Part shown: one piece after another, positions 6,937 to 63,704 of the stretch
How positions within the stretch are numbered: position 1 is the first letter of the stretch
How the letters are laid out: every line of letters starts with the position of its first letter
Assembly (NCBI GenBank): GCA_900319275.1
Contig: ONNS01000001.1
Span: forward strand, 19,448 to 83,447
Direction of reading: 5' to 3'
Length of the DNA stretch: 64,000 nt
Source: an uncultured Eubacteriales bacterium
GTDB taxonomy: Bacteria; Bacillota; Clostridia; Oscillospirales; Oscillospiraceae
Notes under the pieces: generated by a model
The model's input: only the letters and a program-made list of their open reading frames with translations
Databases searched by the model: none
Told to the model about the DNA's origin: nothing
Translations under genes and position numbers: made by a program

Positions 6937-7011
6937 GCCGAAACGCCCTCCGGGGCGTCCGCCGGAGATCGCCTCCCGGCGCCGATGAAGGCAGGCGAGA
7001 AAGGAGACAAA

Positions 7012-23220: not shown

Positions 23221-23510
23221 AGCACTTTTTACATTACGCGCAAGCCCGGGAATGGCAAGAGGCTGAGGATAGACTGCGGCACATCTATACGACAGATGCG
23301 CTGAAGCTGATTGCCGAGAACACCTCAAAAACTGTCATTCCCGGCGTCGGTGTGGTGGATATTGGATCAATCCTCGCAAAACGATGGATCGAGCTGGCGC
23401 AGCCGCGAAAAGAGCCGGAGAAGGCGGAGGACACTCGGGATTGCCGAGAAATAGCAGACGATATCTGGAAACGGATGAGAGGTGGCAAGCATGGCGTTCA
23501 GCGTTTTTGA
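23064..23510 (+). other. -1 frame extension of the tail chaperone (gpGT-like programmed frameshift product)
   Basis: Frame -1 relative to 22867..23220 is open from 23064 to TGA 23508-23510, with no ATG/GTG/TTG until about 23352; best slip candidate is CTTTTTA at 23140-23146 (non-canonical). Confidence 0.55.
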
Positions 23511-26445
23511 TCTATTTGCCAAGTTATCCTTAGATTCAAGTGAATATGAAAGAGGGCTTGCCGAGGCAAAGGGTAGCGCCACAAGCGCAGGCAGCGGAAT
23601 TGGAAACGCACTGAAAACAGGCGTTAAAGTGGCCGGCGCCGTGCTTGCGGCCGCTGGTACCGCTGTCGTCGCTTTTGGTAAAACGTCTGTTAATGCCGGT
23701 GTGCAGTTTGACACCGCTATGTCCCAAGTCGCCGCGACCATGGGCAAGACCGTTGAGGAGCTCGTGCAGAGCACAGGGACTGCCGAGACGTCGTTCGGAC
23801 ACTTTGAAGGCAATCTCCGAGATTTTGCACAATTCCTTGGTGCCAATACAGCCTTTTCAGCAACGCAAGCCGCCGAGGCTCTAAACTATATGGCCCTCGC
23901 CGGGTATGACGTGCAGCAGAGCATGGATATGCTGCCGAATGTGCTCTCCCTTGCCGCTGCCGGTAACTTTGACCTTGCCAGAGCCTCGGATATGGTGACC
24001 GACGCTCAAACAGCGTTTGGCATCAATGCGGGGCGCACAACGCAGATGGTCGATGAGATGGCGAAAGCGGCATCGACTGGCAATACGTCAGTTGAACAAC
24101 TCGGTGATGCTTTCCTCGTGGTCGGCGGTCTTGCGCAAGAGCTGAACGGCGGTCTTGTTACCTTGGCAAATGGAACCACAACTTCAGTTGATGGACTGCA
24201 GGAACTCGAGATTGCATTGACAGCCATGGCAAACGCTGGCGTGAAAGGCAGCGAAGCCGGCACGCACATGCGGAACATGCTGCTGAAACTGTCCTCACCG
24301 ACAAAGGAAGGACGGGAAGCGTTTGAGGCGCTCGGCGTGTCTGTCTTTGATGCCAACGGGGAAATGAAATCCCTTGAGGAAATCTTCGGGGATTTGAATA
24401 GAGCCATGTCCACCCTCACGCAGGAGGAAAAGATACAGGCTATTTCCGACATCTTCAATGTCCGCGATGTTGCTTCTGCCGAAGCGCTGCTCAATGCGGT
24501 GGGCCAGGACTGGAACAAGATCGGCGCAGCAATCCTTGACGCGCAAGGCGCGGCCGCACAGATGGCGGCAACACAGCTTGACAACCTTGCCGGCGATATG
24601 ACCCTGTTTCAGTCAGCGCTTGAAGGAGCAAAGATCGCAATATCCGACAGCCTGACACCTACGCTGCGTAACTTTGTTAAGTTTGGCACGTCAGCCGTTT
24701 CTGAGCTCGGAACAGCGTTCAAAGAGGACGGGCTACAGGGCGCCTTGAATGCTCTTGGCCCTGTCATCAATCAGGGCGTCGAGCTTATCTTCTCGGCACT
24801 TCCGAATGTCTTGAACGCCGCGACGAGTTTGCTGACTTCTTTTGGCTCTGCCATAATCCAGAACCTCCCGAAACTTATCCCTGCTGGCATTCAGATCGTT
24901 ACAACGCTTGTGGCGTCACTCGTTTCCGGCTTCCCAGAATTGCTGTCGTCAGCAACTCAAATAATCAAGCAGATCTCGGATGGAATCATGCAGGTTCTTC
25001 CGCAGCTCATACCGGCTGCAATTCAGATTATATCCACTCTTGGGCAGGGGATTATGACGATGCTCCCGGAACTCGCAACATCAGCGATTGACATGATCTC
25101 TACGCTGACCAAAGGGATCCAGGAAAATCTCCCGCAGCTTATCCCGGCAGCAATGAACGCTATCATGCAATTCTCAGGTTCGCTGCGCGAGAACTTCGGG
25201 AATATTGTGGACGCCGGCTTGCAGCTGATTATGACGTTGGCTGACGCTTTGATTCAGAATTTGCCGGTCTTCATCGAGACTGTTCCGACCATCGTTTCCA
25301 ATATTGCCGGACTAATAAACGACAACGCGCCGAAGCTACTTGAAAGCGGCATCCAGCTGATCATTCAGCTTGTTGCCGGAATTGTCCAGGCGGTCCCGAC
25401 GCTTATCGCGGAATTTCCCAAGATCATTCGAGCCATTTTCGACGTGATCACTGCGGTCAACTGGATCAATCTCGGCGGAACTATCATCACCGGAATAAAA
25501 AACGGCATTTCCGGACTGGCAAAAAGTGTGCCGGAAACGCTTAAAAAAATCGGCGAAGAGGCACGAGATTGGCTTAAGGCAATCGACTGGAAAACTCTCG
25601 GCGCTGACATTATCGACCTGATCAAAATAGGAGTGCAGTCGCTTATCAATGTGATTCCGAACCTTCTGAAAAGCATTGGAGCGACAGCAGTGAAACTGTT
25701 TAAGGAAATCGATTGGCTCGATCTCGGCATCAATGTTATCAATGGCATTGTCGCGGGGCTGAACGGCATTTCTAACTTCCTGTGGGAGGCTATCAAGGCA
25801 ATAGGGCAGGGGATTATAGATGGATTCAAGGGCATCCTTGGAATCCATAGCCCCTCTACCGTTATGGCAGAACTCGGCAAATATCTAATCCTCGGCTTTA
25901 TAAACGGCATCAGCGAAAAAGTCGGTGCAATAACTGAGCAGATCAAAAACCTGACCGGATCGATCAGCAATATTTTCAGCAACCTCGGCAGTAGTGCTGC
26001 ACAATGGGGCCGCGATCTGATCGGGAATTTTGTCGACGGCCTGAACCAGAAGCTGCAAAACCTGAAAGACAAAGCCGTCGGTATCGCACAGCAGATCAAA
26101 GATGTTATCGGCTTCTCGGAACCGAAAGAAGGCCCGTTGTCGAATTTCCACACCTATGCGCCGGATATGATGGAACTGTTTGCAAAGGGCATTCGGGACA
26201 ATGAGAACCTCATTACGGACGCAATCAGCAGCAGTTTCAACTTGCACGACCAGATCGGCGCGAGTTTCAACGGCGGGCGCGTGGTCAGCAGTGGAGCGCC
26301 GCGCAGCATTTCCGGCAGCAACGGCAACACGACCGTTATTTTGCAGGTTGACCGCACTGAGCTTGGCCGCGTGGTTTTCCAGCTCAACGATGAGGAGACG
26401 CAGCGCGTTGGCGTCCGTCTCGCTACGGGAGGAGCTTACGCATGA
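23482..26445 (+). CDS. tail tape measure protein
   Basis: 987 aa, Ala/Leu-rich helical repeats (LPQLIPAAIQII-type repeats); GTG 23482 or ATG 23491 start. Confidence 0.88.
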   Translation: MASMAFSVFDLFAKLSLDSSEYERGLAEAKGSATSAGSGIGNALKTGVKVAGAVLAAAGTAVVAFGKTSVNAGVQFDTAMSQVAATMGKTVEELVQSTGTAETSFGHFEGNLRDFAQFLGANTAFSATQAAEALNYMALAGYDVQQSMDMLPNVLSLAAAGNFDLARASDMVTDAQTAFGINAGRTTQMVDEMAKAASTGNTSVEQLGDAFLVVGGLAQELNGGLVTLANGTTTSVDGLQELEIALTAMANAGVKGSEAGTHMRNMLLKLSSPTKEGREAFEALGVSVFDANGEMKSLEEIFGDLNRAMSTLTQEEKIQAISDIFNVRDVASAEALLNAVGQDWNKIGAAILDAQGAAAQMAATQLDNLAGDMTLFQSALEGAKIAISDSLTPTLRNFVKFGTSAVSELGTAFKEDGLQGALNALGPVINQGVELIFSALPNVLNAATSLLTSFGSAIIQNLPKLIPAGIQIVTTLVASLVSGFPELLSSATQIIKQISDGIMQVLPQLIPAAIQIISTLGQGIMTMLPELATSAIDMISTLTKGIQENLPQLIPAAMNAIMQFSGSLRENFGNIVDAGLQLIMTLADALIQNLPVFIETVPTIVSNIAGLINDNAPKLLESGIQLIIQLVAGIVQAVPTLIAEFPKIIRAIFDVITAVNWINLGGTIITGIKNGISGLAKSVPETLKKIGEEARDWLKAIDWKTLGADIIDLIKIGVQSLINVIPNLLKSIGATAVKLFKEIDWLDLGINVINGIVAGLNGISNFLWEAIKAIGQGIIDGFKGILGIHSPSTVMAELGKYLILGFINGISEKVGAITEQIKNLTGSISNIFSNLGSSAAQWGRDLIGNFVDGLNQKLQNLKDKAVGIAQQIKDVIGFSEPKEGPLSNFHTYAPDMMELFAKGIRDNENLITDAISSSFNLHDQIGASFNGGRVVSSGAPRSISGSNGNTTVILQVDRTELGRVVFQLNDEETQRVGVRLATGGAYA

Positions 26446-32580: not shown

Positions 32581-33663
32581 ATGGCAAACAACAACTTTGA
32601 CCTGACCAACCTGGCGCTGCAGTGCATTTGCCCCAACAATGAGCTTTTGTATGACGATGTGGGCAAGCCGTCGGTGATGGTGAAGATTCCCAAGATGACC
32701 TATGCTCAGCTCGGCCTCGGAACCTCCACCGAAATCTTCCCGGCATTTAAGGTGGATGATGTGGAGAAAGACGCGATCTGGATCTCGAAATATCAGAACA
32801 TCGTGCAGAATAGCAGAGCGTATTCCCTGCCCGCCCGGGATCCGCGCGCCTCGATCACCTTCGATCAGGCGATATCGGCCTGTACGGCCAAGGGTGCTGG
32901 ATGGCATCTGATGACCAAAACGGAATGGGCGCTGCTGGCTTGGTGGTGCAAGCAGAACGGAACTATGCCCTATGGCAACAACGACTACGGCAAAGATACG
33001 CGAGAATCTGTCTACCGGGCCATCCCGTCTATGGCCCGTGACAGCAGCAATCGCATCCAGCGTGTCGCTACCGGTACCGGCCCTCTGACATGGAGCCATG
33101 ACCGGACGCCCTCTGGCATCTGGGATTTGAACGGCAATGTGTGGGAATGGACCGGCGGTGTGCGGATGGTGTACGGCGAGATTCAGCTTCTTGCGAACAA
33201 CAACGCCGCGAACAAGGATCACTCCCAGGCGGCCAACTCCGCGCTTTGGATGGCGATCAATGCAGCCGACGGCAGTCTCATTGCCCCGGACGGCAGAGGC
33301 ACGACCGAGGGCTCTGTGAAGATGGATTTCGTCAACAGCCACGTCCAGTATTCCACTACGATCACCAGCAAGTCCGATAGCGGGCGCGGATGCCCGTGGA
33401 ATGCTGTGAGCTGCGACAGTACAATCAGCGATGCGGCCAGACTTGTACTGGCTTCGATCGGGCTCTGCCGTTATGATCTGAGTGTCACTGACTTTGATAG
33501 TGATTACTTCTATTTCAACAACGGCGCCGCCGACCGTTGTTGGTTATGCGGCGGCGCCTGGAACAACGGCACGGACGCCGGTGTGTTCTACTCGTACGGC
33601 AACAGCTCCCGCGGCCACTCGAGCGCGTCCATCGGCTTCCGCTCCGCTTATTATGTACCCTGA
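32581..33663 (+). CDS. DGR target protein: FGE-sulfatase / C-type-lectin-fold receptor-binding protein carrying the VR
   Basis: 360 aa; GWHLMTKTEWALLAWW and DLNGNVWEWTGG motifs; C-terminal 39 codons correspond to the TR with A-specific differences. Confidence 0.88.
   Translation: MANNNFDLTNLALQCICPNNELLYDDVGKPSVMVKIPKMTYAQLGLGTSTEIFPAFKVDDVEKDAIWISKYQNIVQNSRAYSLPARDPRASITFDQAISACTAKGAGWHLMTKTEWALLAWWCKQNGTMPYGNNDYGKDTRESVYRAIPSMARDSSNRIQRVATGTGPLTWSHDRTPSGIWDLNGNVWEWTGGVRMVYGEIQLLANNNAANKDHSQAANSALWMAINAADGSLIAPDGRGTTEGSVKMDFVNSHVQYSTTITSKSDSGRGCPWNAVSCDSTISDAARLVLASIGLCRYDLSVTDFDSDYFYFNNGAADRCWLCGGAWNNGTDAGVFYSYGNSSRGHSSASIGFRSAYYVP
33531..33648 (+). repeat. DGR variable region (VR)
   Basis: 118-bp gapless alignment to 34220..34337; 107 identities; all 11 mismatches lie opposite TR adenines. 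Confidence 0.92.
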
Positions 33664-33687
33664 GTACTGACCCACTGTGTGCTGTTT

Positions 33688-33707
33688 TGCTCCGCGGTAG
33701 CGGAGCA
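33688..33707 (+). promoter_or_regulatory. hairpin downstream of VR (8-bp GC-rich stem, GGTA loop), candidate DGR target-recognition element
   Basis: tgctccgc-ggta-gcggagca, 25 nt after the target stop codon. Confidence 0.55.
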
Positions 33708-33717
33708 TCGCGATTTC

Positions 33718-33745
33718 TTCGCCCGAAGGGCGAAAAAAATTTTTA
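33718..33745 (+). terminator. rho-independent terminator
   Basis: ttcgccc-gaa-gggcgaa followed by aaaaattttt (possibly bidirectional). Confidence 0.65.
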
Positions 33746-33840
33746 TGAAAATTACGGTATTCCGTAATAAAATTCCATTTTGCTCTTCCCTCCGCTCAGC
33801 AGTGGTAGAATTGCCACACTTGGACGGAGGAAAGAGCAAA

Positions 33841-34215
33841 ATGGGAGAGATCAGCGAAACAAAAGAATTTCTGCTGCTTCAAAGAATCCTTGACATGATG
33901 GAATATGGCTATGTGTGTCTCCGGCAATTCCCTAAGTCCGAGAAGTACGCTCTGGCAACGGATATCAAGCGATGCATGGATGAAATGGTGTCGCTTGCGA
34001 TTACAGCTCAGAAACGATACTACAAAAAGACCACTTTGCAGGATCTGGACATAGAGATTATGAAGCTCCGTATCTATATCCGGTTGGCGTATAGGCTACG
34101 ATTTCTTCCAATGGAGAAGTACGAGAACTGGTCAGCTATGGTGGTCGAAATCGGTAAAATGCTCGGCGGCTGGATCAAGACCGTCAATGAACGGGCCGCA
34201 AAGCAGAGGGAATAG
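33841..34215 (+). CDS. avd: DGR accessory variability determinant (four-helix-bundle Avd)
   Basis: GGAGGAAAG RBS then ATG 33841; 124 aa; FPKSEKYALATDIKR motif of the Avd / 23S-IVS four-helix-bundle family; TR starts 4 nt after its stop. Confidence 0.82.
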   Translation: MGEISETKEFLLLQRILDMMEYGYVCLRQFPKSEKYALATDIKRCMDEMVSLAITAQKRYYKKTTLQDLDIEIMKLRIYIRLAYRLRFLPMEKYENWSAMVVEIGKMLGGWIKTVNERAAKQRE

Positions 34216-34219
34216 TCCA

Positions 34220-34337
34220 CGAACGTTGTTGGTTATGCGGCGGCAACTGGAACAACGGCACGAACGCCGGTGTGTTCTACTCGAACGGCAACAACTCCCG
34301 CGGCAACTCGAACACGAACATCGGCTTCCGCTCCGCT
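34220..34337 (+). repeat. DGR template repeat (TR)
   Basis: 27 adenines, many as AAC codons in the VR reading frame; 11 differ in the VR, no non-A differences. Confidence 0.92.
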
Positions 34338-34512
34338 CATGCCCAAAAGTCTCATGTTGCAGGCTCAAGGGCCTGCAATCAGTACCGGGCATAAGGGGAC
34401 TATCCCCGGGGTTATATCGTAGCCCAAAAACATTCTCTTCGGTAATCCGACGTTCCGGCGGTGTCCAAAGCCGCACGGCGTCTGATAGGCCGGGGATAAG
34501 AGGAGTGGCAGA

Positions 34513-35631
34513 ATGGAAAAATACTCTCATGTTTTCGAAGAGTTTGACACTTTCGAGAATATGTATGACGGCTATCTGTTGGCGCGCAAATCCAAGCGCG
34601 AGCGCCCGGAGGTATTACGCTATTCTGCCAACCTTGAAGAAAATATCATCAACGATGTGAACCGCCTGTACTGGCAGACATATACCCCCGGAGAACTGCG
34701 GCCATTCTACGAGTATTTTCCGAAGCTCAGACTGATTCACTCTCAACAATTCGGCGATCGGGTGGTCAACTGCGCAGCATATAACGTCCTTTGGCCGATC
34801 TATTCCAAGTCTTTCTATGAACACAGTTACGGGAGCATCCCCGGAGGCGGTCAAATCAATGCAGTTAATACCCTGCAGCAGTGGATGAAAATGCTGGACG
34901 GAAAGCAAGAGCGGTGGTACATAGGCAAGCTCGATATAGCAAAGTTCTTTTTCCGCATTCCTATTGAAGTTCAGATGCGAGAACTGCTGCGGCCTCTGGA
35001 CGATCCCCGTATGGCATGGTTCCTCAATGTGGCGATCCGCTGCGACGGCCGGCCATTTGGCTTGCCACTCCATTGCACCGACGTCACTACCGCCGAAAGA
35101 ATCTGCGGCCGAGGGATGCAGGTCGGCAGCCTGATCTCCCAGACAACGGCCAATGTGGTGCTGACACCGCTCGACCATTACATCAAGCGCGTTATGCGCA
35201 TCCCGTACTATATCCGGTACATGGACGACATGATGATTCTTTTGCCGGGGAAAGACGAGTGCTGGGAGGCGATCGCAGAGATAGATGATTTCATGCAGGA
35301 ACACCTTGGGCTTCAGTTGAACAAAAAGACTGCTGTAATGCCTGTCGGTACCGGCGTGGAATTCATTGGGCGCATGGTGTGGCCGGGGCGAACGACGCTG
35401 AGAAAAAGCACCAGCCTAAATATGAAGCGGCATCTCCGGTTTGTCATGGAGCACTACAGTACCGGCGAGTTGCCCCTGGAATACTGCGAAAGCGTGATCA
35501 CCAGCTATCTTGGGCTAATGAGTCATTGTGACTGTGAGGATCTGAGAAACAAAACCTTAGAAGACTTCGTCCTTGTCCGACGACATTTCGGAGAGGACGA
35601 GGAAATTATCGAAGAAGATCAGTTCATGTGA
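34513..35631 (+). CDS. DGR reverse transcriptase
   Basis: 372 aa; YIRYMDDMMIL (YxDD) catalytic box and QVGSLISQTTANV motif characteristic of DGR RTs; AGAGGAG RBS. Confidence 0.9.
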   Translation: MEKYSHVFEEFDTFENMYDGYLLARKSKRERPEVLRYSANLEENIINDVNRLYWQTYTPGELRPFYEYFPKLRLIHSQQFGDRVVNCAAYNVLWPIYSKSFYEHSYGSIPGGGQINAVNTLQQWMKMLDGKQERWYIGKLDIAKFFFRIPIEVQMRELLRPLDDPRMAWFLNVAIRCDGRPFGLPLHCTDVTTAERICGRGMQVGSLISQTTANVVLTPLDHYIKRVMRIPYYIRYMDDMMILLPGKDECWEAIAEIDDFMQEHLGLQLNKKTAVMPVGTGVEFIGRMVWPGRTTLRKSTSLNMKRHLRFVMEHYSTGELPLEYCESVITSYLGLMSHCDCEDLRNKTLEDFVLVRRHFGEDEEIIEEDQFM

Positions 35632-53885: not shown

Positions 53886-54059
53886 GTGCTTCCGTTTGAT
53901 CTATCCAAGTATTCAGATACGGCTCGACATGACCTATGTATGTCTTTTTACCGGGAGTTGGAACGCCTGATGGCCATTCCAGAGGAACGGGAGATTATTG
54001 AGCTAATGACCGCCGAGCGGTTGGCTCGGCAAAAGGAGCAGTCTCGTGAAAGTACCTGA
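53886..54059 (+). CDS. possible 57-aa protein overlapping the integrase start (excisionase role not supported)
   Basis: GTG start, weak RBS; open frame to TGA 54057-54059; no HTH recognised. Confidence 0.25.
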   Translation: MLPFDLSKYSDTARHDLCMSFYRELERLMAIPEEREIIELMTAERLARQKEQSREST

Positions 54060-55065
54060 GCCACGGAAAATGACATCTGGGAACTGGTTTATTCAGCTCC
54101 GCCTCGGCGGCCAAAGCATTCCTGTCACGGCTGCGACGAAAAAGGAGTGCATCCGGCAGGCTGAGCTTATCAAGGCAGAACACCGAACGGGGAAGCGGAC
54201 GGAGATCAAGAAAGAATCGGAGCTCACGCTGGGAGAGGCGCTGGATCGATATATCAATACATATTCCAAAACGCTTTCCCCATCCACGATCCGCGGGTAC
54301 AAGATGTATCGGAAGGCTCGTTTCCTCGCATACCAGGACAAGCGACTGGACACCATCAACTGGCAACGTATGATCGACGACGAGCTGGCGTCCAAGAGCG
54401 AGAAGACGGTCAAAAACGGATGGGGCCTTGTCCATGCAGCTCTGGACCACATAGGCTATCCGATCCCGAAGATAAAGCTTGCCAAAGCGCCGGTCAACGA
54501 GATCGCTTTTCTGCAGCCGGAGGAGATTAAGCCATTCTGCGCTGCTGTCAAAGGCCGGAGCTATGAGATCGCGGCCTTGTTAGAGCTTCACGGCTTGCGT
54601 CTATCTGAAGTACGCGGCCTGAAATGGGAGAACATCGACACGGAGAGGGAGATAATCACCATCCGGGGCGCAATGGTGCGGGGCATGGACGGACAGACGC
54701 TGAAGAAGACGAATAAAAACGAGGCGTCTTCCCGTGATGTGCCAATCCTTATTCCGCAGCTCAAGGAAGCTCTGGAAGCAGTCGAGGACAAAATCGGCTT
54801 TGTAGTGAAGATATACCCGAACACTCTTCTGGACGATGTAAAACGGGCGTGCAAGCGTGCCAGGGTAACAGAGGTAACAAACCACGGCCTGCGCCATTCG
54901 TTTGCGAGTCTCTGCTACTTTCTCGGTATCCCCGAGCGCCAGACCATGAAATGGGGCGGGTGGAGCGACTACACGACCATGCACAAGATATATATCCGTC
55001 TTGCAGCAGTGGCAGAGACCGAGGCAAAGCAAAAGATGGTTTCTTTTTTTGAAAGTGCTAACTAA
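54046..55065 (+). CDS. int: tyrosine-type site-specific integrase
   Basis: 339 aa; AAGGAG RBS 7 nt before GTG 54046; HGLRLSE, HGLRHSFAS and TMHKIYIRL catalytic-region motifs; about 60 bp from attR. Confidence 0.9.
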   Translation: MKVPEPRKMTSGNWFIQLRLGGQSIPVTAATKKECIRQAELIKAEHRTGKRTEIKKESELTLGEALDRYINTYSKTLSPSTIRGYKMYRKARFLAYQDKRLDTINWQRMIDDELASKSEKTVKNGWGLVHAALDHIGYPIPKIKLAKAPVNEIAFLQPEEIKPFCAAVKGRSYEIAALLELHGLRLSEVRGLKWENIDTEREIITIRGAMVRGMDGQTLKKTNKNEASSRDVPILIPQLKEALEAVEDKIGFVVKIYPNTLLDDVKRACKRARVTEVTNHGLRHSFASLCYFLGIPERQTMKWGGWSDYTTMHKIYIRLAAVAETEAKQKMVSFFESAN

Positions 55066-55075
55066 AATGCTAACT
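55056..55075 (+). repeat. pair of TGCTAACT direct repeats (candidate integrase arm-type sites, P arm)
   Basis: tgctaact at 55056-55063 and 55068-55075; same 12-bp phasing and orientation as 4128..4147. Confidence 0.5.
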
Positions 55076-55124
55076 GATTTTGATTTTGAATTGATATTAC
55101 TTTGCTTTTTGGACTTTTTATGAC

Positions 55125-55150
55125 GGGTTCGAGTCCCACCACCGGCACCA
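55125..55150 (+). repeat. attR core (displaced original tRNA-Leu 3' end)
   Basis: 26/26 identity with 3975..4000; followed by a native-looking tRNA terminator. Confidence 0.9.
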
Positions 55151-55157
55151 AACCAAC

Positions 55158-55210
55158 AAAATCCGAACCAGATCTTCCCTATGGGAGACGGGTTCGGATT
55201 TTGTGTTTTC
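55158..55210 (+). terminator. ancestral tRNA-Leu terminator on the host side of attR
   Basis: aaatccgaacc/ggttcggattt stem followed by tgtgttttc. Confidence 0.6.
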
Positions 55211-55310
55211 TACAGGAATCAGTATTTCCTCAATGGTGTACTCCGCCGACCTGAATCCAAACCGAGAGGGCCACGAAAGAAGAAAACTAATTGATTTGGA
55301 GGTATCTATT

Positions 55311-55565
55311 ATGAGAAAACTGATTTCCTGCTCCTATAATGAGGATTCCCAGATTGTAGAGCTTTGCTACTCCGATGGAACGCTAATAAACATTGACTGT
55401 ATAGCCATTGAGGATACTGTTGCCCGAAACATGTATGAGCGTTCAGAGCTGGACTATCTGCTCTACCACGACCCCTTGAGCTATGCCGACTTGGTTTTGA
55501 AAGGAGACATTGAAGCTTATCTGCGGAATGTGACCGATTACCGGCCACTAGATGAAAGAGAATGA
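55311..55565 (+). CDS. hypothetical protein
   Basis: GGAGGT RBS then ATG 55311; 84 aa. Confidence 0.55.
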   Translation: MRKLISCSYNEDSQIVELCYSDGTLINIDCIAIEDTVARNMYERSELDYLLYHDPLSYADLVLKGDIEAYLRNVTDYRPLDERE

Positions 55566-55654
55566 ACAAAACACGCATGATGGCATATAGGGCTTAACCG
55601 TTAAGAAAGGATAGACTTAATCAACTGTAGGAATCTATCAAAACGGTTGCCGAC

Positions 55655-55704
55655 AAGAAGCCGGAGAGTTGGGTACAGAGGTGTACACAACTCTCCGGCT
55701 TCTT
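55655..55704. terminator. bidirectional terminator (17-bp perfect inverted repeat) between convergent genes
   Basis: aagaagccggagagttg (55655-55671) pairs with caactctccggcttctt (55688-55704). Confidence 0.75.
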
Positions 55705-55716
55705 AATGACCACTCA

Positions 55717-56811
55717 TTACAGCTTTTTCTTATTATAATGTAATTCCTCAATGTCATATACATCAACTGATATACATTGAAATAATTCTGGATTGAATAT
55801 TGCTAAATTGAAGCCGCCTGGGTTTGTCGTACTATTATACTCAATGCCATCATATTCTGGAGCCCCGTCGTGTTCAATGCTCTTTATGAAATCGACGATA
55901 TACTGGGTTGGAATATAATCTAAAGTGCTATCACTTCTGCGGAGAGGACGACTCATTTCAAAGTTTAGCTTTTCTAAGTACTGCTTGTTAATAGCGTGGT
56001 CAATAAAATCCAAACCTTCAATAAAAGGACTAATTGTATTTAACGCTTTTAAGTCCACAATAGTGATGTCTCGTTTTAGCTGGAATGTTCCAACGGTTAC
56101 GTAATCAAAGACACCCGCGCGAACCTCGTGCAAAGTTGTATCAATGTCATTAGCCACATATAGGCATGTGATGCCTCGTGCATTTGCACGTCCTTCTGAA
56201 CTTTTCCCAGCTGGAGGTGCCGACATTTCTGCTACAGGGAAGCCCCGGCTATCTGAGATTCTAGCACGGTAAAAACAATCACCGGTTTTATACTTCTTTC
56301 GAATAAACGAGCAATACTTTTCTAAGATGCCAAAGTTTACCAATTTGGAATGATACCTGTTTTTAGTCTTTATTTCGTCTACAAATTCCTCCCAACTACT
56401 ATTCTTGAGAAGGGCGTGATCACGCAAATAGGACGAGTCGTGAAGCTCAGGAATACCAATCAAGTCATCAAATAATGCCGGTGCAGTAGAGTATAAATCA
56501 TGACAGATTGCAGTAATGATTTCATATTGAGATGCACGAGATATGCCTGAAAAAACACTCCATCGATCATTGAGTTCATCAATAAGTGTGCGTCGTTCAG
56601 CTACTGGATAGTAGTCAGGCAATGAAGAGGTTGGAGAATAAACACTTATTAAATCCTCAAAATATGGCGTCAAATCATTTTGCAAAGCAGTATCATAAAG
56701 AAATACGTCATCGCTGCCACAAACAGGGCATTTCCCTTTTGTTCCACCAGAAACAGCTCCAATAATTGAGGATATTTCTCTATCTTTAAAACAATGATCA
56801 CAGAAAATCAT
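55717..56811 (-). CDS. zinc-ribbon N-terminal domain plus RES-domain protein (putative NAD-targeting effector)
   Basis: ATG 56811 in an ATGA overlap with the upstream stop; 364 aa; CDHC...CPVCG; RES triad context GRANARG / LHEVRAG / EYNSTTNPGGFNLAIF. Confidence 0.78.
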   Translation of the reverse strand: MIFCDHCFKDREISSIIGAVSGGTKGKCPVCGSDDVFLYDTALQNDLTPYFEDLISVYSPTSSLPDYYPVAERRTLIDELNDRWSVFSGISRASQYEIITAICHDLYSTAPALFDDLIGIPELHDSSYLRDHALLKNSSWEEFVDEIKTKNRYHSKLVNFGILEKYCSFIRKKYKTGDCFYRARISDSRGFPVAEMSAPPAGKSSEGRANARGITCLYVANDIDTTLHEVRAGVFDYVTVGTFQLKRDITIVDLKALNTISPFIEGLDFIDHAINKQYLEKLNFEMSRPLRRSDSTLDYIPTQYIVDFIKSIEHDGAPEYDGIEYNSTTNPGGFNLAIFNPELFQCISVDVYDIEELHYNKKKL

Positions 56812-57746
56812 TCTTTTGCTCCATCCAGAAACCTGCTCATAAGCTCTAAGTGATGCATAATTGAGTATTTTTTTAGAACGCCTAAGCCGGGATACGTTTG
56901 GCTCCAATACGCTGACTCAAAGGCTTTTATTCCAGCAGTATCTAATCTCATCGTTTGATTCCAATCAACGAGTTTTTTTGCTGCCTCAGAGAACTTCCTG
57001 GCGGGGTCAGAAATATCATCGTTAGAATCAGAGACAAAATGAGCTATGCGAAGAGTTTTTTTGTCATCAAAGAAAACAATGTGAATTGCGACTGCATAAG
57101 GAGCAAAACCGGTCTCACTATATTCATCGCCTACTACAGAGTAGTCAGAGAAACCTTTGTATCCGTCATCTGAATAGAATAAATGATCGTTGGAAAAAAA
57201 CTCTGTTTCGATTCCTGAATAATCTACATTTCTGCTTTGCTTTGGAAAATGATCCTCACACAGGACGCGATTTGGCCGAATTCGGCGTCTAAAATCCCCT
57301 TTGTCTGGAATTAGATTATATAGAGGAATTGCATCACCAATAGCATTCTCATAAAAACCAATACTATCAGGGTTGTTGCAAATGAGTATCAGATTATCGC
57401 GATTAAGGCCTTGCTCTTTCATTTGCTCAACAAAAGATTTCAAGTGAGAATCAACATAAAGCGCTGAAATCAAATGTTGATCAGCCATAAGCGCAGAAAC
57501 AGCATCTTTTATTCCTTGATTGCTTTCTTTCTTCAAGTCTTTAACGAAACTTCCTACATGTGGGTTGCGAATAACAGAGACTCGCCTATCGGCACGAATA
57601 AAAGAGTCTAAGGTTTTAACAAAAGTTGAAGATGCCTTAACTGGCTCAATTATCGGAAGTACTCTTTCGCTCAGCAGATTCCCCGTAATGCATTCACGCA
57701 GAGCAAGCAGTTCAAATTGACGACCACGTAAAATGGGAAAATACAT
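56808..57746 (-). CDS. sce7725 / Beta-protein-like family protein
   Basis: 312 aa; N-terminus MYFPILRGRQFELLALRE, which I recognise as the family signature (recollection, not searched); GGAGGA RBS 10 nt after the upstream stop. Confidence 0.6.
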   Translation of the reverse strand: MYFPILRGRQFELLALRECITGNLLSERVLPIIEPVKASSTFVKTLDSFIRADRRVSVIRNPHVGSFVKDLKKESNQGIKDAVSALMADQHLISALYVDSHLKSFVEQMKEQGLNRDNLILICNNPDSIGFYENAIGDAIPLYNLIPDKGDFRRRIRPNRVLCEDHFPKQSRNVDYSGIETEFFSNDHLFYSDDGYKGFSDYSVVGDEYSETGFAPYAVAIHIVFFDDKKTLRIAHFVSDSNDDISDPARKFSEAAKKLVDWNQTMRLDTAGIKAFESAYWSQTYPGLGVLKKYSIMHHLELMSRFLDGAKE

Positions 57747-57756
57747 TTTTATCCTC

Positions 57757-58596
57757 CTATGTACACAAGAAGCTTTTTAGCCGGGAATAATCAGCTTTTT
57801 TAAAGTTAGAGAAATAGATGAGAAACTTCAGTTCATACGGCGCTTTCTCAAATTCGTCTATTTCTATTTTAGATCTTCTTTTCAGTGTTTGCGTAAAAAG
57901 AGTGTAGGCTTCTATCACAGGAATAGATTCAAACCAAGACAAGCAAGTTCTATAGTATTCAAACTGAGATACGTTGGGTAACCTACCAAATTTGGATAGA
58001 AGAATGCTTTCATATTCATCCTTCCTAAGCACCTTAAACATCGTAGAAAGCGAAAGCTTCTCAGTATATTCCACCGGCTTCTTTCGTTCGCTAATAGTGT
58101 CCCTCTTGGTTAGAATATATATGCCAACAGGCGTGCCCTCTAAGCGACTTGAAATCTCTTCAAAATTGCTTTCAGAAGTCACGACAGCAACACGCGAAAA
58201 AGCTTTATAGTAGTCGGCTATCTGCCCGTCAAGGCGCTCAAAGTTATCTAATTCAGTTTTTATCTCATATACAACGGCTTTTCCATTAATCAAAATGAAA
58301 TCTGCTTTTGAATTTCCTATTGGAACTTCGGTGAGAGCCGTAGTGGTATGAGGATTATGGATGCCCAGGAGGAGTTTGTTTAGAAGCGTGTTTTTGTAGT
58401 AGTATTCATTTTGATATTGTGATTTCAGGAAAAAGTATATTTCGCTAATACACTCCAGATTTGATAGATTAGATGAGTCGGCAACATAGCGTCGAATAGC
58501 GGCAGAATAAGTTGCACTTTCTCCTTCATTAATCAATTCTTTTAAGGTGTTTCGTGTAAAAAAGCGATTAATCAAAATTGAGTTGTTGCCGTCCAT
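57757..58596 (-). CDS. sce7726-like PD-(D/E)xK nuclease-fold protein
   Basis: GGGAGGTG RBS 6 nt before ATG 58596; 279 aa; TEVPIGNSKADFILINGKAVVYEIKTELD = E...D...E-x-K endonuclease-type motif. Confidence 0.6.
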   Translation of the reverse strand: MDGNNSILINRFFTRNTLKELINEGESATYSAAIRRYVADSSNLSNLECISEIYFFLKSQYQNEYYYKNTLLNKLLLGIHNPHTTTALTEVPIGNSKADFILINGKAVVYEIKTELDNFERLDGQIADYYKAFSRVAVVTSESNFEEISSRLEGTPVGIYILTKRDTISERKKPVEYTEKLSLSTMFKVLRKDEYESILLSKFGRLPNVSQFEYYRTCLSWFESIPVIEAYTLFTQTLKRRSKIEIDEFEKAPYELKFLIYFSNFKKADYSRLKSFLCT

Positions 58597-58665
58597 CCAA
58601 AACACCTCCCTCTAAAAGAATTCGATACAGAAATAGTCCTCAAAATCACATACTCTTTCAACTTA

Positions 58666-58694
58666 AATATATTCGTTTGAATGAATTATGTCAA
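58666..58694 (-). promoter_or_regulatory. promoter of the three-gene operon (TTGACA-17-TATATT)
   Basis: On the minus strand: ttgaca (58689-58694), 17-nt spacer, tatatt (58666-58671); about 70 nt upstream of ATG 58596. Confidence 0.65.
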
Positions 58695-58739
58695 GTAAAG
58701 AAGGGCGCTACAGCTAGAGCTAAATGCTTTCTTCCATAA

Positions 58740-59561
58740 TCATTTACGTCTCGGCTTGTTCTTCCCGCGTTTGTTGGGCTGGGCTTTAAGCAGCGAGGAC
58801 TTCTTTAAAATGTTGATCAAGCTCGCGAACTCTTCCTTCGTTAGCTTATCGTAATTGATGCCGAGCTGCTTGCAGAACAGGCGCGCCTGGCGTTCCTCTG
58901 GGCTGCCCTCGTAACTCATGGCTGCTTCCAGCTCCTGCCGCGCGGTGTCGGAGGGGTTGACCGCATCTGCGGTGGTCGTATCCTTCTTGTGCGCTTCCCG
59001 GATATCCGCGATGATCTTGTCGAGATCTTCATGCACGACCCGGCTGAAATACTCGTCCTCATCGATCTGAGCCAGCTCCAGCGTCCGCATATACAGATCG
59101 TTCTCGCCGGGGTTGTGCTTTTCCATGACGGTTTTCCGTGCTTCCGCAAGCACGACATTCATATCATGAACCCGCATTGCTGCGATCCGATCCACGCAGA
59201 TCTCCGTATCCACTATCAGACGCTGAAAATCCGGATGCGTGGCGATCTCACATAGCAGGCGGTTGTTGATCTTCCCGCTTGCCAATAGCTTCAGCATTTC
59301 ATCACTCAGATGCAGACCAGCCAGGTCTGTGTCTGGGTGATTTTTCATTTCCGAGACTCCCAGCAGGTAATCCGTGGAGACCCCATAGTACTCCGCCAGC
59401 GTCACGATGCTGAACGGGCTGATGTCTTTATAATCATCGGTCTCATAGCTGCCAAGGGCAGACTTGGACAAACCGGTGAGTTCAGCAAGCTCCTCCAGTT
59501 TCAACTTGCGCTCTGTACGCAAATCCTTCAACCGTTCGGGAACAGACAGTTTTACATACAT
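58740..59561 (-). CDS. XRE-family HTH protein with about 200-aa C-terminal domain
   Basis: 273 aa; LKDLRTERKLKLEELAELTGLSKSALGSYE HTH; GAAGGAGAG RBS; extended -10 (TGtgaTATAAT) upstream. Confidence 0.78.
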   Translation of the reverse strand: MYVKLSVPERLKDLRTERKLKLEELAELTGLSKSALGSYETDDYKDISPFSIVTLAEYYGVSTDYLLGVSEMKNHPDTDLAGLHLSDEMLKLLASGKINNRLLCEIATHPDFQRLIVDTEICVDRIAAMRVHDMNVVLAEARKTVMEKHNPGENDLYMRTLELAQIDEDEYFSRVVHEDLDKIIADIREAHKKDTTTADAVNPSDTARQELEAAMSYEGSPEERQARLFCKQLGINYDKLTKEEFASLINILKKSSLLKAQPNKRGKNKPRRK

Positions 59562-60079
59562 TTTCGCTCTCTCCTTCGCTGGAAAACGTTGTTCTTCGGT
59601 ATTATATCACATCATTTCCACGAGCGCGGAATTTTTCGCTTTTCCATGCCGATTTCCTACATCCTGGATATACGGGAGGAGGCCAATTATTTTGGTACGA
59701 TACGGTCAGAACAAGTGAATGACCGTCCGAGCTGAGATAAACCGCCAGGATCTCGAAAGAGGGAGCGCGTCCCGTGAGGGGCGACGGCACAGCGCCGAGC
59801 AGGGTTGCCTGTCAGGAAACAGCGAGGGTAGAACGGCAAAACGGTTGCCAGATTTCAAAGGATGTGAAAACCGCGAACAATCTTTCGGTTTTATGCCGGA
59901 AATCACACTAAACAGCGCTGCACCATTCCGCGAATAACGAATGCGGATCAGTGCGTCTTATCACCGTTCCGTGTGCTATTACGCAGAGCAACGAAACAGC
60001 ACAGCCGCCTATGTGACCAGATGGTCATGGGCGGCTGCGCTATTTCATGACAGTTAGAATGATTATTGTGCTCTGTGGT

Positions 60080-60111
60080 GAAACCGGTACGCATGATCGC
60101 GTACCGGTTTC
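60080..60111. promoter_or_regulatory. perfect 13-bp inverted repeat (operator-like) upstream of the small HTH gene
   Basis: gaaaccggtacgc (60080-60092) - atgatc - gcgtaccggtttc (60099-60111). Confidence 0.5.
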
Positions 60112-60140
60112 GCCAATGAGCGAACAGAAAAGGAGGGATC

Positions 60141-60353
60141 ATTACGGATATACGAAATGAGATCAAAGCCTACATTGTCCGGGAGGGCATGACCATGGGC
60201 GAGGCCGTGAAGCGGCTGGCCGAGGACTATGGTTGGAGCGAAAGTGTCCCCAATCTGTCCGGCAAGTTGCGCCGGGGCTCGCTGCGTTACAGCGAGGCTT
60301 TGGAACTTGCAGATGTGCTTGGCTACGATATTATCTGGCAGAAGCGAAGATAA
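60141..60353 (+). CDS. small HTH-like protein with an apparent non-canonical (ATT) start
   Basis: Frame open from 60120 to TAA 60351-60353; AAAGGAGGG RBS at 60128-60136; no ATG/GTG/TTG before ATG 60189; product ITDIRNEIKAYIVREGMTMGEAVKRLAEDYGW... Confidence 0.45.
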   Translation: MTDIRNEIKAYIVREGMTMGEAVKRLAEDYGWSESVPNLSGKLRRGSLRYSEALELADVLGYDIIWQKRR

Positions 60354-60366
60354 ATCTCCCAGCTAT

Positions 60367-63018
60367 TTATTGTTCCGCATTCCGAAGGCGTTCTACTACG
60401 CTTTGCTTTATTGCGCTCCTATAGAACAGCGCCGGAATCAAACAACCAAGAAGTGCAAATATGGGAATGGCTGCAAATGCAGGCAGGACGGTAAAACGAT
60501 AGCTGAAAAACCAAAAGGCTTTTTCCAATGCTTTCCCAGTTAGAGGGTTCAGTAATACAGATAAAAATAGAGCCAGAACACCGGAGGCAAGTGCATAAAA
60601 CAGCCCTTCATAAATGAGCATTGTTTTGAGCTGTCGATTCGTCATGCCCACTGCCTGTAAAACAGCAAGCTCTCTGCGGCGGGAGAGGATACTGGTCATG
60701 ACTGCATTGAGGAAATTGAGCATCCCCACCAATCCGATGATTGCGCACAGTGCCCCGCCCAGGAGCAGGAACAGCTTTTGAAACCCCTCAAAATCTGTCC
60801 GGAGACTGGCCTTACTCTCATACATCAGTGTGGAGAGAGGATCGTAAGTCATTTCGGACAAAACCCGCTCTGCCTCTGCTTCGGCCTTTTCATCCGGGGT
60901 ATCAAAGAGATAGAAAAGCGGAATGGCCTTTGCACCACTGTCCCGCTCCAGCGTCTCGACGGGAAGTACCGCCTCATAGCCTACAGTCCGATAGCGAAAG
61001 CTCATAGAATGCGGTATAGCAACCAGTGCGCAGACGGTATAATCCACCTCATGACTATCGGGAACCGTCATTTTCATATATTCTATTGGGGTGTTTTCAT
61101 CAATCAATTCACCGCTGCGGCTGTCAACATAAGGCATGTTATTCCCATAGACCAGCGTCAGTGTGTCACCGATGGCCGGATAATACTCCGGGTGCTCCAG
61201 GTTTCCATAGTCATCCAGGACAGCGGAAATGGCAATGCTATGCCCATCTTCACTGTGTAATGGAGCCAGATCACCGTCAAGCAGTATCAGCTTGTCGAGC
61301 AGAGCATCGTCCAGACCCTCAATTGTGATAACTTGCAGAGCAGTATCGTCCCGATGATCCTGATTAGCAAACATCTGCTCTGCCTGTTCAACCCCATAAT
61401 AATGCGAGTTATCCATGAGCCAGGCGCTTTTTGACATCCAGGCAGCAGAAGCTCTCGAATTGCGGTAACCGAATCCGGCAAGCGATGCTTCCGTTTGTGA
61501 ATTTAGCTCCGCAACGAGCTCCTCGGACAGGTATTCCTCTGCACCTATGTTGGATCGAAAATAATCTGGGCTGCTGACGATGAAATCTGCACAGGACTGA
61601 GCAGCAAGATACTTTTCCATATCAAAGCCGCCTACGAATTCGACCAACATGTTCAGTAACACCACCGCCAAGGCAAGGGATATCACTACCAGCGCGGTTT
61701 TGCTCCGGTTTCTTCCAAGATTGGCCCAAGCCATTTGATGAACCTTGGCGCCTCGCCTGCCGAGACGCTTCTTTTTGCCGGAGGAGCCCTCAGTATAACG
61801 GCTCGCTTCCACTGGAGAAACCCGGCCTGCCTGTCTGCCTGGCTTTGCACAAGAAAGCAGCACCGTTCCAAGTGCGAAGAGGGCAGAAAGCAGAAAGATC
61901 AGCGGGGATGTACTGACAGTCAGCGCTGAGTCGCTGAGCGAGCTGCTGGCAATGACCGCAGGCATCACCAGCGCCCCAAGGCCAAAGCCAAGAAGGAGCC
62001 CAATAGGGATGCCGACCGCGCACAGCGTCAGCGCCTGAAGGCGGATGATGCGTCGCAGCTGCCGCGGCGTCACGCCGATGGTTTTCAGCAGCCCGTAATA
62101 GCGGATATCTCCGGCGACAGAGATCTGAAAGATGTTGTAGATGATCAGATATCCGGTAATGATCACAAGGATCAGGAAGGCCGCAACCGCGGCGATGGTC
62201 CCCGCGTCCATTCCCGCGCCGAGCTGCGATGTGGTATAGCCCCAGTTTACGCCAATGCGCACCGCATTGTCCGCATTTCGATCTTCCCAGGTATAGCCGA
62301 GGTCTGTATCCACCTGCTCCATCTGTCCGCGAATGTCTACGGAAGACGCCATCATGACGTTCAGATCGGCCCGGAAAGGATTCATTCCGGCAGACAAGCC
62401 CAGTTCCTCCATCTGCTTGGCGTAATCATGGGAAATATTGATATAGTGGACTGGCATGAGGCCATCATACTCCCACCAGCCTACCAAGGTGAAAGTGTCC
62501 CTAATCTCTGGCCCGGTCTGCATTTTGTCATGGAGGGTAAAGCTCAATGTAATCTCAGCACCTAATTCTGGCGTCACACCGAGTAAATCCAAGGCTTTTG
62601 TGTCCATCGTGATCTCTTTGCCGGACGTCGGGAGCCGCCCTGTTGTCGGCAAAGCATAGCTCCAGCGGGTGCAGTTTTCATCCATATAGCTGATCTCGGC
62701 AGGAGTTTTGGCAAAGACGCCCTCTGCTGTGGTTCCGACGACAATTCGGATGCCAGCTGCTTTTACCAAGCGATGTGCGCTGATGTCCGCGGCCTGCTGC
62801 TCTGTTACCTCCTTGAAAGTACCGTGAGAATAGCCACCCAGCTGCCGGAACTGATAGGTCTGGTAGCTGGCGTTAATGGACGTCACCACTGTAAAAAGGG
62901 CGGTAAAGAGCAGTGTAGTCAAAACAATCGCAGCTGCCGCGATCAGATTTCTCTTCCGCTGTGCCCACAGTGTTCGCACACTTAAGCGGCGGATACATTT
63001 TCCGTTTTTCACACGCAT
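60367..63018 (-). CDS. ABC transporter permease with two FtsX-like domains
   Basis: 883 aa from ATG 63018 (AAAGGAGA RBS); two 4-TM FtsX-type modules separated by large extracytoplasmic regions. Confidence 0.82.
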   Translation of the reverse strand: MRVKNGKCIRRLSVRTLWAQRKRNLIAAAAIVLTTLLFTALFTVVTSINASYQTYQFRQLGGYSHGTFKEVTEQQAADISAHRLVKAAGIRIVVGTTAEGVFAKTPAEISYMDENCTRWSYALPTTGRLPTSGKEITMDTKALDLLGVTPELGAEITLSFTLHDKMQTGPEIRDTFTLVGWWEYDGLMPVHYINISHDYAKQMEELGLSAGMNPFRADLNVMMASSVDIRGQMEQVDTDLGYTWEDRNADNAVRIGVNWGYTTSQLGAGMDAGTIAAVAAFLILVIITGYLIIYNIFQISVAGDIRYYGLLKTIGVTPRQLRRIIRLQALTLCAVGIPIGLLLGFGLGALVMPAVIASSSLSDSALTVSTSPLIFLLSALFALGTVLLSCAKPGRQAGRVSPVEASRYTEGSSGKKKRLGRRGAKVHQMAWANLGRNRSKTALVVISLALAVVLLNMLVEFVGGFDMEKYLAAQSCADFIVSSPDYFRSNIGAEEYLSEELVAELNSQTEASLAGFGYRNSRASAAWMSKSAWLMDNSHYYGVEQAEQMFANQDHRDDTALQVITIEGLDDALLDKLILLDGDLAPLHSEDGHSIAISAVLDDYGNLEHPEYYPAIGDTLTLVYGNNMPYVDSRSGELIDENTPIEYMKMTVPDSHEVDYTVCALVAIPHSMSFRYRTVGYEAVLPVETLERDSGAKAIPLFYLFDTPDEKAEAEAERVLSEMTYDPLSTLMYESKASLRTDFEGFQKLFLLLGGALCAIIGLVGMLNFLNAVMTSILSRRRELAVLQAVGMTNRQLKTMLIYEGLFYALASGVLALFLSVLLNPLTGKALEKAFWFFSYRFTVLPAFAAIPIFALLGCLIPALFYRSAIKQSVVERLRNAEQ

Positions 63019-63032
63019 GTCGCCGTCTCCTT

Positions 63033-63704
63033 TCACCTGCGGCTTACGATGCGCCCATCTTCGATGCGAATTGTGCGATCCGCCATCTGTGCGAGTTCCT
63101 CGTTGTGGGTGATCATGACAATCGTCTGCGAAAACCGTTCGCTGGTGATCTTCAATAGCCCTATAACGTCCTGACTCGTCCGGGAATCCAGATTGCCAGT
63201 AGGTTCATCCGCTAAAATGATCGCAGGCTTTGCGGCGAGGGCGCGAGCAATAGCAACGCGCTGCTGCTGGCCGCCGGAGAGAGTGTTCGGCAGGTTTTCC
63301 AGCTTGTTGTCCAAGCCAAGGGTTTGGACGATCTGATCGATATAGGTTTTATCGAGGTTCCCTCCGTCCAATTCCACCGGCAGGACAATGTTCTCCCATA
63401 CGCTCAGTACCGGGACAAGGTTGTAACTCTGAAACACGAAACCGATCTTGCGCCGACGGAAGATGGTCAGTTCCTCCTCCTTCAAAGCGGACAGGTCCTG
63501 CCCGTCTACGGTCACGGTTCCGGATGTTGGACGATCCAGTCCTCCCAGCATATGAAGGAGCGTCGATTTCCCGGAGCCGGACGATCCGACGACTGCAACA
63601 AACTCACCATTGTTTACAGTCAAATCAATACCATCGAGGGCTCGGACTTCTGCTTCGCCGGAGCCATATACTTTTCTCAAGTCTTTTGTCTCTAAAATTG
63701 TCAT
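63033..63704 (-). CDS. ABC transporter ATP-binding protein (MacB/LolD-type)
   Basis: GSSGSGKST Walker [16 protein letters not shown] signature, [11 protein letters not shown] Walker B; GGAGGT RBS before ATG 63704. Confidence 0.92.

Follow-up and report, generated by a model that had tools for sequence, protein, structure and literature searches.

What kind of system is encoded by a compact, AT-rich three-gene operon that stands beside the copied 3' end of a tRNA-Leu gene in an uncultured Eubacteriales bacterium of the Oscillospiraceae? The window analyzed here is a 64,000-nt stretch of contig ONNS01000001.1 (assembly GCA_900319275.1, positions 19,448–83,447 of the forward strand), and the operon, hereafter the triad, encodes a protein of the sce7726/phage P4 cII family (protein 1), a protein of the sce7725 family (protein 2) and a protein carrying a RES domain (protein 3). 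A first-pass annotation, made from the sequence alone, had proposed that the three form an NAD-targeting abortive-infection module. Our analysis points, with fair probability, to a Gop-β-cII-type abortive-infection/toxin module in which the position of the toxin is filled by an aRES-type NAD+ phosphorylase.

The three genes are tightly packed on the minus strand (Table 1), as that annotation had described. The TAG stop codon of gene 1 overlaps a GGAGGA motif and the ATG of gene 2 lies 10 nt further on, while the TGA of gene 2 and the ATG of gene 3 share the tetranucleotide ATGA (start at 56811). Gene 3 is translationally coupled to gene 2, so that the sce7725 and RES proteins would be made together. 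Gene 1 has an alternative, in-frame GTG start at 58605; its ATG is preceded 8 nt upstream by GAGGGAGG, and the 279-aa form is also the one chosen by gene callers in public data. The promoter-like site that had been noted is present about 70 nt before this ATG and is the top scorer in a scan of positions 55000–60200, a scan that yielded 15 sites overall and therefore no enrichment over shuffled sequences (11.0 ± 3.4). At the other end of the operon, the reported 17-bp perfect hairpin forms part of a longer palindrome whose 23-nt arms are 96% complementary (17 perfect pairs, one mismatch and five more pairs; ΔG −41.1 kcal/mol, z = −7.3 against shuffles). The hairpin, which could serve both convergent genes, those of the triad and a DUF6061 gene, is not directly followed by a T-tract. 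An Rfam scan found no structured RNA within or near the operon. The GC content of the triad is 0.385, compared with 0.532 for the XRE gene upstream, 0.529 for the whole window and 0.62 for its first 3.9 kb, and a value so far below the surroundings indicates that the cassette was acquired separately. The triad is a self-contained, horizontally transferred and mobile three-gene cassette, foreign by its base composition.

The candidate toxin is protein 3, for which the zinc-ribbon–RES assignment proved correct. Residues 187–349 match Pfam RES (PF08808) at 61.7 bits (gathering threshold, GA, 23.2; E = 1.1e-16), and all 28 homologues in a family alignment (28–99% identity) match the same model. 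Invariant residues in this alignment include the four cysteines of a CxxC…CxxC zinc ribbon (C4, C7, C28 and C31), W140, N151-R152, R182 and R184, as well as G207-R208-A209-N210, Y218, E229, S327 and N335; the motifs GRANARG, LHEVRAG and YNS…NLAIF singled out earlier all fall on invariant columns. R208, E229 and S327 follow an R-(21)-E-(~100)-S spacing, which we take to be that of canonical RES toxins. The RES domain is preceded by a 185-aa N-terminal extension comprising the zinc ribbon and an NTD1-like region: HEPN_RES_NTD1 (PF18870) is matched by 22 of the 28 members, at best with E = 6.1e-5, and by the window protein itself at E = 0.023 and 15.5 bits, under the GA of 27.4. No sequence match to the solved RES toxin structures was obtained for protein 3. 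Its profile aligned over 309 columns, taking in the zinc ribbon and the whole N-terminal domain (NTD), with a standalone 457-aa RES protein of an Enterobacter IncF plasmid (hhalign probability 99.2, E = 1.4e-19), which in turn matches RES and PF18870 (the latter at E = 2.5e-4, under the curated cutoff). We infer that protein 3 is an NAD+-degrading effector.

Standalone Zn-ribbon–NTD1–RES genes of this kind are common on enterobacterial plasmids (loci L105, 4103–5356; L106, 3980–5353; L107; L108), and a tblastn search with the window RES protein returned 306 plasmid records, partial matches included. On two Enterobacter IncF plasmids (L105 and L106), the gene lies between a parA/parB-like operon and umuDC. 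These standalone proteins probably belong to the aRES family.

Protein 1 is sce7726-like, as had been claimed. It matches the NCBIfam model sce7726_fam (NF033832) at 186 bits (cutoff 70), the PADLOC model "cll" at 4e-16 and P4 cII itself at 1e-11 by BLASTP, and it carries a precomputed Pfam assignment to Phage_P4_cII (PF26915); P4 cII is conversely labelled "sce7726 family protein" in its RefSeq record. In an alignment of 12 sequences from Bacillota, a Spirochaetales metagenome-assembled genome (MAG), Pseudomonadota, viral contigs and P4 cII, residues E90, D99, E111, K113, D117, R121 and Q125 are invariant throughout, and the quoted motifs TEVP, KADF and YEIK sit on invariant columns. The spacing E90…D99…E111-x-K113 is the classical PD-(D/E)xK signature, so the earlier claim of a PD-(D/E)xK protein stands at the level of the motif, while its structural side drew only non-significant matches. 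The AlphaFold2 (AF2) model (mean predicted local distance difference test score, pLDDT, 81) places helical domains around a β-sheet core (residues 100–172); Foldseek found nothing significant for it (best E = 0.097, TM-score about 0.2–0.3), and the top of this non-significant list consists mostly of PD-(D/E)xK proteins, namely AF2093, Cas4-like ACE1, YaeQ, CdiA-CT, influenza PA endonuclease and CinB. No Pfam nuclease model matches protein 1. On the basis of the invariant motif and these Foldseek matches, a nuclease fold is likely, short of proof.

Protein 2 matches sce7725_fam (NCBIfam NF033831) over its full length at 341 bits (cutoff 60), and MYFPILRGRQFELLALRE falls on invariant columns of the family alignment. 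The second half of the earlier description, that the protein is Beta-like, holds less firmly. Against Pfam Beta_protein (PF14350), only an N-terminal segment is matched, at E = 0.22 and 11.4 bits (GA 27), and comparison with P4 Beta gave E = 0.006 by BLASTP and E = 0.0023 by hhalign (probability 12.6%, N-terminal 46 columns only); the similarity is confined to the N-terminal YFPxLRGRxxELxAL…PIIEP, and the PADLOC beta model does not match. Among 61 diverse members of the sce7725 family, however, 25 match Beta_protein at E ≤ 1, the best at 1.1e-6, and Beta_protein is the only Pfam family to recur among the 61. Because of these matches, and because both families pair with cII homologues, a distant homology between sce7725 and Beta is plausible, and the comparisons lend weak support to protein 2 as a distant relative of P4 Beta.

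Further clues to protein 2 come from residue conservation. At 34% identity, the sce7725 alignment retains many polar residues as invariant or nearly so, among them R7, E34, N61, D165, N173, Y176, D201, H222, H236, S239, K251, E254, K292, H299 and E301. The AF2 model (pLDDT 74, residues 150–217 unmodelled) alternates β-strands and α-helices in its N-terminal half, and several of the conserved polar residues come just after strands, which suggests that the sce7725 protein may be an enzyme or a ligand binder. Foldseek returned nothing significant from the PDB, where the best match (E = 0.025) lies in a diffuse list of TIM-barrel enzymes, or from BFVD, where the best is an uncharacterized Gordonia phage protein (E = 1e-3, TM-score 0.44). 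Sequence and profile searches of the PDB with proteins 1–3 gave nothing usable.

Do the three genes belong together? Scanning one genome per species, we found sce7725 relatives in at least 584 genomes; clusters at 50% identity number 1,226. Synteny was counted in the best-matching 80 of these species genomes: the order cII→sce7725→RES is colinear in 73, so the conserved co-occurrence expected of a true system was recovered. The other seven comprise four loci that end at a contig edge, one with a truncated RES gene and two true exceptions (L034 and L096). Bacillota supply most of the 80 loci, MAGs labelled as Odoribacter, Anaerolinea or Spirochaetales are also represented, and the gene 2/gene 3 junction in related loci is again an ATGA overlap or near-abutting. 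Across the 73 colinear loci, identities to the three window proteins co-vary (Pearson r = 0.88, 0.87 and 0.94, the last for sce7725 against RES), which indicates that the genes are inherited as a unit. Searches from other starting points gave the same order. RES homologues at 53–59% identity lie in cII→~305-aa protein→RES loci of Cohnella, of a Spirochaetales MAG and of a metagenomic contig on which the triad is embedded among capsule-biosynthesis genes. Using sce7725 as the tblastn query, we found triads on Moraxella and Rhizobium plasmids, annotated as sce7726, sce7725 and "RES family NAD+ phosphorylase", and in a Salmonella houtenae integrative and conjugative element (ICE), where the annotation names the RES gene alone; the sce7725 proteins of these copies are 31–35% identical to that of the window. 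Relatives also occur on 33 IMG/VR viral contigs, mostly as triads.

Variant architectures were found as well. Five loci carry cII and sce7725 with no co-directional third gene, two of them adjoining what look like integrase genes, and four IMG/VR contigs have the reverse order, with an HSDR_N/PD-(D/E)xK protein followed by sce7725 and cII and without RES. On an E. faecium plasmid, sce7725 has another partner and is joined by a GNAT gene, and a Listeria phage record is also matched by sce7725. Since pair-only loci and loci with another third gene exist, the cII/sce7725 pair is the conserved core and RES the usual, non-obligatory third component; pair-only loci mean that the core can exist without RES, which favors an activity of its own for cII.

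One of the two true exceptions has an unusual composition. In L034 (6941–8912 of the Lachnospiraceae MAG contig CANPZE010000026.1; 67% identity), the RES slot is occupied by a Macro gene (1.6e-46), which overlaps the sce7725 stop codon, and then an ADP-ribosylglycohydrolase gene (2.7e-39), and at this junction sce7725 has an altered C-terminus. The arrangement is striking, as Macro phosphatases are a reported phage counter to the RES product, but a chance deletion could equally have produced this junction. By tblastn, no homologue of either gene, as counter-defense candidates, occurs anywhere in the window.

These variants bear on a reading in which two independent systems travel together, a cII/sce7725 pair with cII as the nuclease effector and an aRES-type single-gene defense. 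The pair-only and reverse-order loci would fit it, as would the standalone, full-length RES homologues on plasmids with no pair nearby and the ability of aRES to work alone. We nevertheless judge it decidedly unlikely: genes 2 and 3 overlap or nearly abut, adjacency holds in 73 of the 80 loci of the clade with four more cut by contig ends, the divergence of sce7725 tracks that of RES (r = 0.94), and a single promoter and a single terminator bracket all three genes.

For the triad as one Gop-β-cII-type module, we propose the following course of events. One promoter would drive all three genes. In the uninfected cell, RES would be kept inactive, most likely by the sce7725 protein, in the way that Beta neutralizes Gop in P4, and the cII-like nuclease-fold protein would reside in the same complex, there either sensing nucleic acid or acting as a further effector. 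Upon phage infection or another trigger, RES would be released and would phosphorolyze NAD+ to nicotinamide and ADP-ribose-1''-phosphate (ADPR-1''P), and the resulting depletion of NAD+ would arrest the infected cell's growth before new phage particles are complete. Translational coupling and very tight co-divergence suggest that sce7725 and RES act as a complex. The defense role, the NAD+ chemistry, the restrainer of RES and the trigger are what we infer for this scheme, together with the roles of "sensor" and "controller" given to cII and sce7725.

The chemistry might differ. RES belongs to the ADP-ribosyltransferase (ART) superfamily, and the RES toxin ParT modifies Prs; protein 3 could thus ADP-ribosylate a protein or nucleic-acid target, or make an ADP-ribose-derived signal for sce7725 or cII, instead of depleting NAD+. 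The many invariant polar residues of sce7725 at predicted β-strand ends, as in an enzyme or ligand binder, and the two ADP-ribose-related genes in the RES slot of L034 would agree with such a role. The closest characterized architecture, the NTD1+RES arrangement of aRES, depletes NAD+ to ADPR-1''P, and no receptor-type domain was found in the sce7725 or cII partners with Pfam; we consider this possibility very unlikely.

The genomic setting concerns a further question, whether the cassette serves its host or its carrier. The tRNA-Leu(caa) gene of the window has its 3' end repeated exactly, over 26 nt, on the far side of a prophage of about 51 kb that is integrated into it; shuffled sequences yield no such matches. 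The copy at the right attachment site (attR) and the stop codon of the RES gene are 567 bp apart, in keeping with the earlier estimate of about 0.5 kb. Two prophage-free metagenomic contigs (L002 and L006) encode an identical RES protein and have an intact tRNA-Leu about 130–160 bp from the DUF6061 gene that comes after the triad, which places the triad outside the prophage and beside the ancestral tRNA-Leu. Past the tRNA on these contigs are the core genes YabP, YqfD, PhoH, YbeY and Era, and on two others (L004 and L005) a different integrase gene adjoins DUF6061. The opposite flank of L002 and L006 carries the XRE gene, an FtsX/ABC transporter, a two-component system, DUF3847 and a MobA/MobL relaxase. 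Because of this relaxase and its companions, the segment hosting the triad is suggested to be a mobilizable element with a peptide-antibiotic-type resistance module.

Such a setting would suit a module that acts mainly in addiction, a toxin–antitoxin (TA)-like device that stabilizes its mobile element, with RES as toxin and sce7725, cII or both as labile neutralizers. Copies on conjugative or mobilizable plasmids and on an ICE, together with the MobA/MobL-type mobilization genes here, speak for this role, as do the classical RES proteins, themselves TA toxins, and the original description of Gop/β in TA-like terms. Many copies are nonetheless chromosomal, amid housekeeping or capsule genes, and the flanks examined contain no mobility genes. 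The closest relatives studied by experiment, Gop-β-cII and aRES, both protect against phage. The two roles are also mutually compatible. We regard a mainly addictive function as rather unlikely.

Several points weigh against the Gop-β-cII-type defense reading that we favor. The functions assigned to the triad members are predictions from sequence. The homology between sce7725 and Beta is weak, which makes the analogy to β restraining Gop fragile, and the RES domain is too diverged from the solved RES toxins for its exact chemistry to be more than extrapolated. RES may not need the pair, nor the pair RES, since pair-only and other-third-gene loci exist and standalone aRES-type proteins defend alone. 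In P4, gop precedes β with cII convergent, whereas the order here is the co-directional cII→β-like→RES. Many copies reside on plasmids, ICEs or integrative and mobilizable elements, which fits addiction as well as defense. Finally, among the two nearest genes per side in 37 loci (146 proteins), there is no conserved neighbor and no strong defense-island signal, with only a modest enrichment of known defense genes.

In that survey, the 146 neighbors fall into 185 Pfam families, none of which is found in more than four proteins. Interspersed with housekeeping genes are resolvases/recombinases, integrases, GmrSD, JetC, PDC-S01/S28 and M78 peptidases. As the flanks differ from locus to locus, the cassette appears self-contained and mobile. 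Two neighbors in the window were considered as parts of the system and rejected. Between the triad and the XRE-family helix-turn-helix gene lies the predicted promoter of the operon itself; the XRE product matches the PADLOC model capH (2e-10) and RmrA-type regulators, and its C-terminal region of about 200 aa has no Pfam match and no DUF2384-type antitoxin domain. Of the 80 related loci, 5 have a homologue of this gene, which in four of them immediately precedes the triad in the same orientation; this rarity, the missing domain and a GC content unlike that of the triad argue against a cognate antitoxin. The DUF6061 gene is on the opposite strand and is present in 1 of the 80 loci.

Table 1. 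Positions of the triad, its signals and surrounding features in the 64,000-nt window
Feature	Position	Strand	Description
Gene 1	57757..58596	minus	sce7726/phage P4 cII family protein, 279 aa from ATG
Gene 2	56808..57746	minus	sce7725 family protein, 312 aa
Gene 3	55717..56811	minus	Zn-ribbon + HEPN/RES-NTD1-like + RES, 364 aa
Predicted promoter	58666..58694	minus	sigma-70-type, TTGACA-17-TATATT, 11/12 consensus match
Palindromic hairpin	55655..55704		operon end; arms 55655-55677 and 55682-55704
XRE-family HTH gene	58740..59561	minus	273 aa; HTH_3, 5.5e-13
FtsX-family permease	60367-63036		889 aa; right of triad
tRNA-Leu(caa)	3915-4000		prophage integration site
26-nt att repeats	3975-4000, 55125-55150		exact repeat of tRNA-Leu 3' end; second copy is attR
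Prophage	4001-55124		about 51 kb, between the repeats
Prophage large terminase	13697-14971		
Prophage portal	14989-16428		
Prophage major head protein	19604-20536		
Prophage tape measure	23482-26445		
Prophage integrase	54046-55065		

Other features of the setting were recorded in passing. In related contigs (L002, 1–6445), the FtsX permease gene stands together with genes for an ABC ATPase, a histidine kinase, a response regulator, DUF3847 and the MobA/MobL relaxase. The prophage contains a diversity-generating retroelement (32581–35631) with a reverse transcriptase at 34513–35631 (phrog_1423, 5e-99), a template repeat at 34220–34340 and a variable repeat at 33531–33651, the latter at the 3' end of the open reading frame 32581–33663; 11 of the 12 mismatches between the repeats are A in the template and another base in the variable copy. 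Also within the prophage are an Rfam Hammerhead type II ribozyme (6936–7000; 45 bits, over the gathering score) and, in the early region, a gene resembling 3'-phosphoadenosine-5'-phosphosulfate (PAPS) reductase (11283–12446; phrog_2302, 7.9e-81).

If the proposed reading is correct, Gop-β-cII would no longer be a P4 curiosity, but would belong to a widely distributed family (sce7725 relatives in at least 584 species genomes; 1,226 clusters at 50% identity), and some aRES-type NAD+ phosphorylases would be sensors in their own right while others would be effectors governed by a separate two-protein controller, which would bear on the reach of phage countermeasures such as Macro phosphatases and aRad1. 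Because RES has a measurable NAD+ read-out, the triad offers a tractable entry to the mechanism of the cII/Beta core. A broader idea, which we hold tentatively and with somewhat less than even confidence, is that the cII/Beta-type pair is a general, hitherto unrecognized sensor–regulator chassis for interchangeable effectors, with sce7725/Beta itself being a gating enzyme or a small-molecule-binding, (β/α)-barrel-like protein. The effector would be Gop in P4, RES in most sampled members of the sce7725 branch, an HSDR_N/PD-(D/E)xK protein in some viral contigs and none in pair-only loci; the one validated system, that of P4, would then be the tip of a large, phylum-spanning defense family with a new sensing principle.

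How does the triad compare with what is already described? The models of PADLOC-DB v2 (2023) match protein 1 and neither protein 2 nor protein 3, so that the triad was uncatalogued there; current defense finders probably miss it. Literature searches on sce7725 and sce7726, and on the product names given by the Prokaryotic Genome Annotation Pipeline (PGAP), returned mentions in gene lists and tables only, and no description of the triad was found. Its two closest relatives, Gop-β-cII (PMC9122126) and aRES (bioRxiv 10.64898/2026.01.28.702374), have both been reported. Judged by sequence relationships, the triad is widespread and combines relatives of the components of these two validated defense systems.

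Gop-β-cII, located in the hotspot of the phage satellite P4 and listed as gop_beta_cll in PADLOC and DefenseFinder, makes E. coli resistant to λ and P1; without β, Gop is toxic, and the two were initially described as TA-like (PMC9122126). A phage accessory gene acts as the trigger that makes the system kill (bioRxiv 10.1101/2023.04.06.535777). The triad shares with it a cII/sce7726-family protein, the invariant E…D…ExK included, and, with P4 Beta, the N-terminal signature Y-[FY]-P-x-L-R-x-R-x-x-E…P-[IL]-I. Both consist of three genes with a toxin (predicted here) and are carried as mobile hotspot cargo adjoining an integration site. They differ in that protein 2 falls in an NCBIfam family of its own and scores under the Pfam Beta_protein cutoff, and in that the third gene encodes a 364-aa RES protein here and the 133-aa Gop in P4; protein 3 has no similarity to P4 Gop (E = 14) and is not matched by the PADLOC gop model.

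The aRES proteins, described in January 2026, are standalone PF18870+RES proteins with antiphage activity that convert NAD+ to nicotinamide and ADPR-1''P, are countered by phage through a Macro-domain phosphatase and active-site-blocking inhibitors, and are described as having no operonic association with other genes (Osterman et al., bioRxiv 10.64898/2026.01.28.702374). Protein 3 resembles them in its putative HEPN/RES-NTD1 + RES architecture, in a length within their range of 300–600 aa and in the conserved R/E/S residues; the likeness extends, through full-length homology to the standalone NTD1+RES plasmid protein, to the N-terminal CxxC…CxxC. NTD1 was scored here by the Pfam model, whereas the criterion of the aRES authors was HHsearch >80%. 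The triad RES departs from aRES in being translationally coupled to sce7725 and in nearly always following the cII/sce7725 pair.

The Xre-RES type II TA systems (MbcTA, Res-Xre, NatRT and ParST) share with protein 3 a RES domain with the R/E/S signature, and an XRE gene also lies upstream here. Protein 3, however, has its long N-terminal extension, and the XRE protein is without a recognizable antitoxin C-domain, is encoded at host-like GC and has no homologue in 75 of the 80 loci. The sce7725/sce7726 pair of NCBIfam, finally, is represented by two triad proteins far over the curated cutoffs; NF033831 and NF033832 are names without an assigned function, and the RES third gene stands outside their definitions.

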